Assembly: GCF_003334405.1 (NCBI RefSeq)
Contig: NZ_QOWM01000009.1
Length of the DNA stretch: 64,000 nucleotides
Source of the DNA: Escherichia coli
Lineage (GTDB): Bacteria; Pseudomonadota; Gammaproteobacteria; Enterobacterales; Enterobacteriaceae
Direction: 5' to 3' (one strand)
Shown: positions 34,730 to 35,178 of the stretch, one piece after another
Layout: each line of letters starts with the position of its first letter
Position numbering within the stretch: the stretch's first letter is position 1
Position numbers and translations under genes: made by a program
The notes under the pieces: model-generated
The model's input: only the letters and a program-made list of their open reading frames with translations
What the model was told of the DNA's origin: nothing
Database searches by the model: none

Positions 34730-35178
34730 AATTATAATAAATATTATTGTTGAGTGTTATATTATTATTCCTGTGTGATACATTGAGCAAAGACGCGTTC
34801 ATCTTCGTCAAAGATATTATTAAATGCTGGTTTTGAAAAAAGTTCATCGGATAAGATATAGTCACGAAATAAGTATCTGCTAATATTTTATGATTTCTTT
34901 TTCAGAACGTCGAACGGGATTTTCTTATTTAAGATATCAGAATCTTATGATTCGGGTAAAATTCTAAATAAATCAACATGTCATTAAAATCATCATAGCC
35001 ATTAGCTATTTCGGCTAAAATAGAGACTACATGTCTTCGGTCCATCTCACTTAAGGAGTGTAGTTCCGTTGTAAGTTTTTCCATAGCTTGCACTGCTAAA
35101 TTTCGAACAAGGAATTTTCTGCTGGTAATCTCTAAAAAGATGGCATGGTTTACAATGATTTTTGTTTCCTTTTGATTA

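Follow-up and report, generated by a model that had tools for sequence, protein, structure and literature searches.

The question raised by this locus is what the short open reading frame (ORF) in the spacer between yrhA and yrhB of Escherichia coli represents: a functional small gene, a chance frame in AT-rich DNA or, as a preliminary description made from the sequence alone had suggested, an orphan immunity gene or toxin/immunity remnant that may have decayed into a fragment. We analyzed this ORF within a 64-kb window, that is, the whole stretch of E. coli DNA under study, to which all coordinates refer unless another locus is named. The ORF was found exactly where it had been described, on the minus strand with its ATG at 35084-35082 and its TAA at 34931-34929, and its 51 sense codons translate as MEKLTTELHSLSEMDRRHVVSILAEIANGYDDFNDMLIYLEFYPNHKILIS. 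However, it is not unannotated, as had been stated: RefSeq (PGAP) lists it as yrhD, 'protein YrhD' (WP_001307436.1), with the locus tag b4612 in K-12. The window ORF was 100% identical in both DNA and protein to the annotated CDS in the records of strain A14 and K-12, and it occupies the same chromosomal position between yrhA and yrhB. In the literature it appears as a hypothetical protein only (Swiss-Prot P58037 / EcoGene EG14370; PMC3575317).

No purine-rich motif precedes the ATG of the ORF (upstream sequence tttagcagtgcaagctATG), which agrees with the earlier remark that a Shine-Dalgarno sequence was lacking, and a mechanical ORF list starts the same frame three codons earlier, from GTG 35093 (54 aa). 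When the spacer was shuffled 5000 times with dinucleotide composition preserved, an ATG-to-stop ORF of at least 51 codons arose in 17% of the shuffled spacers, and a stop-free run at least as long as the observed 82 codons in 6%. The length of the yrhD ORF is within chance and unremarkable.

The coordinates of yrhD and its neighbors are given in Table 1. The gene order of the region on the E. coli chromosome is ugpQ-yhhA-ggt-yrhB-yrhD-yrhA-yhhZ-yhhY-yhhX, and the part of the window between 34400 and 35700 was found by megablast in 4504 of 5426 complete E. coli genomes. The spacer between yrhA and yrhB is 449 bp long with a GC content of 0.31, and yrhD lies inside it in the orientation of yhhZ-yrhA; the ORF was rightly placed directly downstream of a toxin-immunity pair, on the same strand and in an AT-rich context. 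The toxin gene of this pair, yhhZ, lies upstream of yrhA with a 4-nt overlap and has been described as an Hcp1-family polymorphic toxin with a His-Me finger/HNH domain (PMC5714182), and yrhA is its presumed immunity gene. The yhhZ and yrhA regions were also reported among the H-NS-bound 'promoter islands' (PMC3661553).

Table 1. Coordinates of yrhD, the relic that contains it and the surrounding features in the window, with pN/pS of E. coli alleles relative to the window allele.
Feature	Position	Strand	pN/pS	Description
yrhB	34445..34729	-	0.06-0.34	94 codons; Pfam Imm35 (PF15567), immunity-type gene
Annotated yrhD ORF	34929..35084	-		51 codons + TAA; identical to WP_001307436.1
Full relic	34929..35183	-	1.1-1.8 (82 codons analysed)	Vestigial start CAT 35183-35181, then 84 in-frame codons (NNQKETKIIVNHAIFLEITSRKFLVRNLAVQAMEKL...ILIS) to TAA
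yrhA	35179..35673	-	0.28-0.69	164 codons; NCBIfam YrhA family NF038335, E 1.7e-35; intact
yhhZ	35670..36848	-	0.37-0.99	392 codons; Hcp (T6SS tube protein) N-terminal domain + C-terminal toxin domain; TIGR03344 residues 1-147, PF05638
AT-rich block	~34746..37086			GC 0.29-0.36 vs about 0.5 in flanks; yhhZ, yrhA, yrhD relic + 183 bp downstream
Sigma-70-like hexamers TAGAGA-18-TATATT	35237..35266	-		Inside 3' part of yrhA; consensus scan
Rfam sub-threshold match	35283-35379	-		31 bits vs gathering score 45
Rfam sub-threshold match	35136-35193	+		19 bits vs gathering score 88

Comparison of strains revealed that the AT-rich block is either there or missing as one unit (it is missing in strain K71-77), and yrhB, which lies outside the indel block, is kept in K71-77 together with the loss of yhhZ, yrhA and yrhD. 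Because the indel block coincides with the AT-rich stretch, yrhD should be regarded as the tail of the yhhZ-yrhA islet and not as part of the yrhB flank. Several variants of the region were also observed. In K71-77, about 95 bp of other sequence connect yrhB to yhhY (L003 4346-4441). In the O157:H7 records yrhB is missing too, and the match is confined to 39-44 nt at the ggt end. K-12 MG1655-type records matched the region in two pieces with an IS1 within yrhA, a gene that is whole in the window. In the record of E. coli Nissle 1917 (L002 4185-4301), the yhhY acetyltransferase gene carries an internal stop and is flagged as a pseudogene. Outside Escherichia, Citrobacter youngae possesses a syntenic islet with an Hcp toxin and a YrhA homologue between yhhY and ggt (L015 2326-4570, L016 2086-4329); an additional gene of 294 aa lies upstream, and unrelated small genes, one of 85 aa and one of 83-87 aa, take the place of yrhD and yrhB. 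The small genes at the yrhD position showed no similarity to YrhD and were rejected as homologues. Both Escherichia and Citrobacter seem to use the site between yhhY and ggt as a common hotspot for polymorphic-toxin cassettes.

With respect to transcription, a genomic SELEX study carried out in vitro assigned the sigma-70 site TAGAGA-18-TATATT, plus an H-NS site, to yrhD (PMC3946193). Our own scan for sigma-70 consensus sites yielded 14 sites against 11.7 +/- 3.8 expected, which is not above chance. An Rfam scan of the locus revealed no credible RNA; its two sub-threshold matches were to eukaryotic C/D-box families, and a snoRNA was dismissed as a chance result in AT-rich DNA.

Searches with the 51-aa peptide were uninformative about its origin. 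YrhD belongs to no family in Pfam, NCBIfam or PADLOC. A word-index search of 5.8 billion clustered proteins returned 23 matches, all organism-named ones from E. coli, and a full HMMER scan of 1.84 billion representatives returned six, all from E. coli and at least 87% identical. The peptide is both too short and truncated, which is the reason why no family was reached in these direct searches. Some seemingly divergent or longer versions were examined and set aside. P0013 (76% identity to YrhD) and P0015 occur in Logan assemblies only and differ from K-12 YrhD by L>F, T>I, T>M, H>Y, S>F, R>W, A>V and P>L, that is, only by codon changes of the C>T type, and they probably derive from bisulfite-converted reads instead of natural alleles. 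The longer 'YrhD' proteins P0024-P0026 were gene-call artefacts or fusions to yrhA via 1-nt differences. YrhA-YrhD fusions of 246-247 aa (P0026 and P0028) were seen in Logan assemblies; in P0026 one T of ..TGT TCA TAA.. is missing, either as a sequencing error or as a rare mutant, and this case illustrates how close the two frames are. Its 'DDFNDMLIYL' tail also led us to consider whether YrhD might be what is left of the C-terminus of another YrhA/SUKH-like gene; we rejected this idea as BLASTP of YrhD against YrhA was empty.

The yrhD frame is not confined to the annotated ORF. It is open for 40 codons upstream of the ATG, up to a TAA at 35207-35205 (a 91-codon frame), and this extension contains no ATG, GTG or TTG before GTG 35093. 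The first lead came from loci with YrhA homologues, which were collected and against which YrhD was run by tblastn: in a Leclercia CdiA locus YrhD matched an 82-codon gene (MEHIAAELQLLTDDEKESVIDSFAEIAKAY versus MEKLTTELHSLSEMDRRHVVSILAEIANGY). Relatives of this gene form a family of about 82 aa (alignment A2) from Brenneria, Leclercia, Lelliottia, Pantoea, Silvania, Buttiauxella, Rahnella and Ralstonia. The preliminary description had named a lack of homologs as evidence against its reading; the relic underlying the ORF is homologous to this 82-aa family.

Four comparisons carry this homology. First, a family HMM was run over every one of the 1846 stop-to-stop segments that the window contains, and the sole match was the segment 35204..34932 on the minus strand (E 1.6e-15, 54 bits; HMM positions 4-66), with the next-best segment at E 0.59. 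Second, when the 91-residue frame was compared with the family by hhalign, the probability was 97.7% (E 1.7e-12); the match spans 63 columns, of which 27 precede the ATG, and for the 51 aa alone the values were 88% and E 2.9e-6. Third, tblastn with the Brenneria family member matched 35162..34995 at E 2e-8. Finally, in a MAFFT alignment the E. coli frame was collinear with the family from the start position to one residue from the stop, with 13 invariant columns in common and 28-36% identity over the whole length. The stretch upstream of the ATG aligned with the N-terminal half of the family (KIIVNHAIFLEITSRKFLVRNLAVQAME versus KIIADMAIFLEFTDExSLxPDxAVEMME), and both the AIFLE core of helix 1 and an ME..EL..L....Y pattern are common to the E. 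coli frame and the family. In comparison with the family, the E. coli copy has an insertion of 2-3 residues near its C-terminus. Thus, the coordinates of the ORF as such were correct but the real unit is longer, with homology starting about 31 codons before the ATG. The ATG at 35084 was not the original start; it encodes an internal Met that aligns with family position 35, and the annotated ORF makes up the 3' 60% of the relic. As a separate observation, YrhD residues 35-46 (34947-34982), 'DMLIYLEFYPNH', resemble the helix-1 motif of the family, 'DLAIFLEFTDEE' (second hmmsearch domain, conditional E 0.42); this likeness is probably due to chance, and an internal duplication or rearrangement could also account for it.

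What kind of gene the relic once was can be approached through this family, which is a genuine protein-coding family: all 11 extracted copies were intact, with ATG or GTG starts and pN/pS of 0.24-0.38. A word-index search with a family gene found 38 clusters, a pattern scan of 100,044 species genomes found eight loci, and members also occur on megaplasmids of Pantoea, Rahnella and Ralstonia. The AlphaFold2 model of the family (mean pLDDT 88) is a four-helix bundle with helices at residues 2-20, 28-42, 47-61 and 67-78; annotated YrhD starts in helix 2 and lacks helix 1, the most conserved segment of the family. The family had no sequence match in Pfam, NCBIfam or PDB, and a fold search of the model against PDB returned only generic helical bundles (best E 0.66). 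One member, P0170, carries the NCBI name 'MafI family immunity protein'. This name is the source's label only, since the MafI model gave no match to YrhD or to six family members including P0170 (NCBIfam, E <= 10), and Pfam gave none either.

The gene neighborhood of the family was more informative. In contact-dependent growth inhibition (CDI) loci, the canonical position of cdiI is directly after the C-terminal toxin of CdiA. In Brenneria salicis, the ATG of the family gene overlaps the stop of a CdiA-CT by 8 nt, downstream of the VENN motif. The same 167-aa toxin domain is present in complete form directly before the family gene at two further loci (L028 and L032; 89% and 78% identity), and six more loci (L023, L030, L029, L031, L024 and L022) possess 3' stumps of this toxin of 100, 100, 58, 33, 17 and 15 residues. 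Each toxin copy or stump ends at the start of the family gene, and this arrangement was observed in Brenneria, Leclercia, Lelliottia and Pantoea. Four further members were located in CdiA/PT-VENN loci among Imm63, Imm70 and SUKH genes, where they followed unrelated CdiA-CT/CdiI pairs and preceded orphan PT-VENN or EndoU modules. Judged from gene position only, the family gene appears to be the cognate immunity gene of this toxin and often to survive as an orphan module.

The toxin domain of B. salicis had no match in Pfam or PDB. We observed that this CdiA-CT (L027 4424-4984) matches ~125 residues at the C-terminus of PDC-M17A, a candidate defence protein in PADLOC (E 1.5e-9). In Leclercia sp. 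29361, two full family genes and one partial one lie within 3 kb (L032 5001-5243, 7020-7151 and 7703-7930), which looks like an array of orphan modules. In E. coli, an intact toxin/immunity module was not found in the genomes at the sensitivity of a distant blastn search, and tblastn of the Brenneria CT against the window gave nothing at E <= 1; the likeness to the toxin in the window amounts to about 11 nt at the junction described below.

The junction between the toxin stop and the immunity start suggested how the E. coli copy may have lost its start codon. It reads ..GTTCATGAATAA.. in the relatives and ..GTTCATAATAAT.. in E. coli, or, with the boundary marked by a slash, ..GTTC/ATGAATAA.. 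and ..GTTCAT/AATAAT.., respectively. The relatives have a C followed by ATG at the vestigial start of the relic. The junction is conserved within the family, for example as ..atagttc/ATGAATAAAGAT.. and ..gtcgtca/ATGAATAACAAT.., compared with ..agttgttcat/AATAATCAAAAG.. in E. coli. The difference is most simply read as loss of the G from the ATG, which would leave the gene without a start codon; this reading of a 1-nt deletion rests on about 12 nt of junction similarity. With the G present, the junction would read TGTTCATGAATAAT and the start-restored relic TTCATGAATAAT. A change of GTG to GTT one codon upstream fits the protein alignment equally well, and in either case no start codon is left. 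Loss of the G would also join the immunity frame to what were once the final toxin codons (..VVH), which would explain why the frame is open upstream of the vestigial start. The vestigial start is also overlapped by the last two codons and the stop of yrhA; the deletion would have left this stop in place, changing it from TGA to TAA. As the C-terminal length of YrhA is conserved among its homologues, the toxin stump can comprise at most about three codons. The junction stretch was invariant in seven E. coli lineages, so that the start must have been lost before these diverged. A programmed +1 frameshift from yrhA into the relic frame was also considered and was rejected by inspection, as TGT TCA TAA gives no slippery re-pairing.

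To see how the frame has evolved within E. coli, we compared alleles from lineages 2.5-7% diverged from the window, with the window allele as the reference. The yrhD ORF showed 4/0, 5/0, 9/1 and 10/1 nonsynonymous/synonymous changes, spread evenly over codon positions, and over the relic the changes at the three codon positions numbered 8/5/7 with pN/pS above 1 (Table 1). The yrhD frame evolves neutrally in E. coli, without constraint at the protein level. It is also repeatedly broken: one lineage has a stop at Y39 (TAT>TAG), and the Nissle/B2-type lineage has, independently, both ATG>ATA and a stop at L23 (TTA>TAA). A premature stop and a PGAP pseudogene flag were found in all nine sampled alleles that are at least 2.5% diverged (eight directly translated; SCU-482 also has upstream indels), and yrhA is intact beside the broken yrhD in all of these except SCU-482. 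As to family-typical residues, the B2-type alleles, with both a nonsense mutation and a lost start, still have the F that is invariant in the family and the D that is nearly so (AIFLEFTSSKFLD), whereas both are replaced in the K-12-type alleles (AIFLEITSRKFLV), which have no stop yet.

The frequencies of these alleles were assessed in the 5426 complete E. coli genomes, of which 3803 possess yrhD DNA. Among the carriers, 2798 genomes are within one mismatch of the window allele with the 51-codon frame intact, 476 are within one mismatch of the Y39-stop allele and 460 within one mismatch of the Nissle allele; broken alleles account for about 936 carriers (about 25%), whereas the neighboring yrhA, yrhB and yhhZ stay whole. 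A second class of intact alleles has four amino-acid changes (P0008). Since the intact alleles are at most one mismatch apart, the count of 2798 is a product of common descent and is hardly informative about selection. As far as a functional 51-aa protein is concerned, related genomes do not preserve the frame.

On this evidence, yrhD is most likely what has stayed open of the reading frame of a pseudogenised orphan immunity gene. The earlier suggestion of an orphan immunity or toxin-immunity remnant decayed to a fragment is borne out, in that the relic is a start-less homologue of the family, is under no constraint and is broken in two major lineages. By analogy and from gene position, the ancestral gene would have encoded a four-helix-bundle protein of about 82 residues that neutralised a CdiA-CT toxin by binding it. 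The ORF visible today would begin at an internal Met halfway along helix 2 and end at the original stop, and its 51-aa product, without helix 1 and without a ribosome-binding site, would have no role as a protein and be free to drift; the K-12-type lineage may simply not have acquired a stop codon yet. That the ORF is instead a pure chance frame in AT-rich intergenic DNA without coding ancestry is barely credible. It is true that ORFs of this length are common among the shuffled spacers, that no Shine-Dalgarno sequence is present and that at the 51-aa level the ORF is found in one species; however, a chance frame would not be expected to yield the unique HMM match, which is collinear over the whole length of the family, together with the independent tblastn match.

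Two further possibilities assume that a protein is still made. YrhD might be expressed in K-12-type E. coli as a small protein of 51 aa (or 54 aa from GTG 35093) with a function of its own, for example as a neofunctionalised immunity fragment. Its annotation as a protein in RefSeq and Swiss-Prot, the intact and nearly invariant frame in 2798 genomes and the sigma-70-type site upstream, according to which the region may be transcribed (PMC3946193), are consistent with such a protein. Nevertheless, we consider it unlikely: the product would start within helix 2 and fold without helix 1, no Shine-Dalgarno sequence precedes it, nonsynonymous changes exceed synonymous ones, two independent nonsense alleles and a start loss exist next to intact neighbors, the length of the ORF is within chance and there are no homologues outside E. 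coli at the 51-aa length. Alternatively, a protein of about 80 aa with an orphan immunity function might still be produced in K-12-type strains from a non-canonical start. All 84 codons are open in the window allele, and a candidate start, ATC/ATT at 35153-35148, lies 7-10 nt after a Shine-Dalgarno-like AAGGA at about 35165-35161 (7 nt before ATC ATT). Orphan immunity genes of CDI and Rhs systems can be retained for protection against the toxins of neighbors, which would provide a reason for keeping such a protein. But ATC and ATT are very poor initiators in E. coli, the AAGGA is AAGGT or AAGAT in other lineages, the pN/pS of the relic argues against constraint, the K-12 allele lacks both the family-invariant F and the nearly invariant D, and no cognate toxin module was detected in E. 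coli genomes at blastn sensitivity; a near-full-length protein is very improbable. Taking both products together, it appears decidedly unlikely that the relic is still expressed with a retained function in K-12-type E. coli, either as the 51/54-aa fragment or nearly at full length. If this were true, it could offer residual protection against CdiA-CT toxins of plant-associated or environmental Enterobacterales, or have gained a new regulatory role, and it would be a live example of an immunity gene between decay and reuse.

Our analysis suggests that yrhD (b4612) would be better annotated as a pseudogene relic than as an uncharacterised protein, with homology extending about 100 nt upstream of the current CDS. 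This explains one orphan 'y' gene of E. coli K-12; its practical value is small, and the general picture is unchanged, as displaced toxin-immunity remnants are to be expected at such loci. A by-product is a toxin/immunity pair outside Pfam, NCBIfam and PDB, consisting of an unnamed CdiA-CT domain and its four-helix partner of about 82 aa.

Among known systems, the closest are the orphan cdiA-CT/cdiI modules in CDI loci and the analogous orphan cassettes of Rhs and Hcp toxins. Like these, yrhD follows a complete toxin-immunity pair on the same strand and in AT-rich, horizontally acquired DNA, and its homologue elsewhere follows a CdiA-CT or 3' stumps of one, of which few toxin nucleotides remain here. 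It differs in that the main toxin at this locus is an Hcp fusion of the T6SS type and not CdiA, and in that yrhD is dead (no start, neutral drift and nonsense alleles), whereas a typical orphan cdiI is intact. The same contrast holds within its own family, in which the members have a start, are intact and are constrained, whereas the E. coli copy is start-less with pN/pS above 1. With its neighbors YrhA (NF038335; SMI1/KNR4 in UniRef) and YrhB (Imm35), yrhD shares the locus, the strand and the class of small cytoplasmic immunity-type proteins; however, they show no sequence similarity to YrhD by BLASTP, and both neighbors are under purifying selection and intact where yrhD is broken. yrhD adds a dead example to a type of element that is already known; the ORF had been annotated before, and its identity as a relic is now specific.
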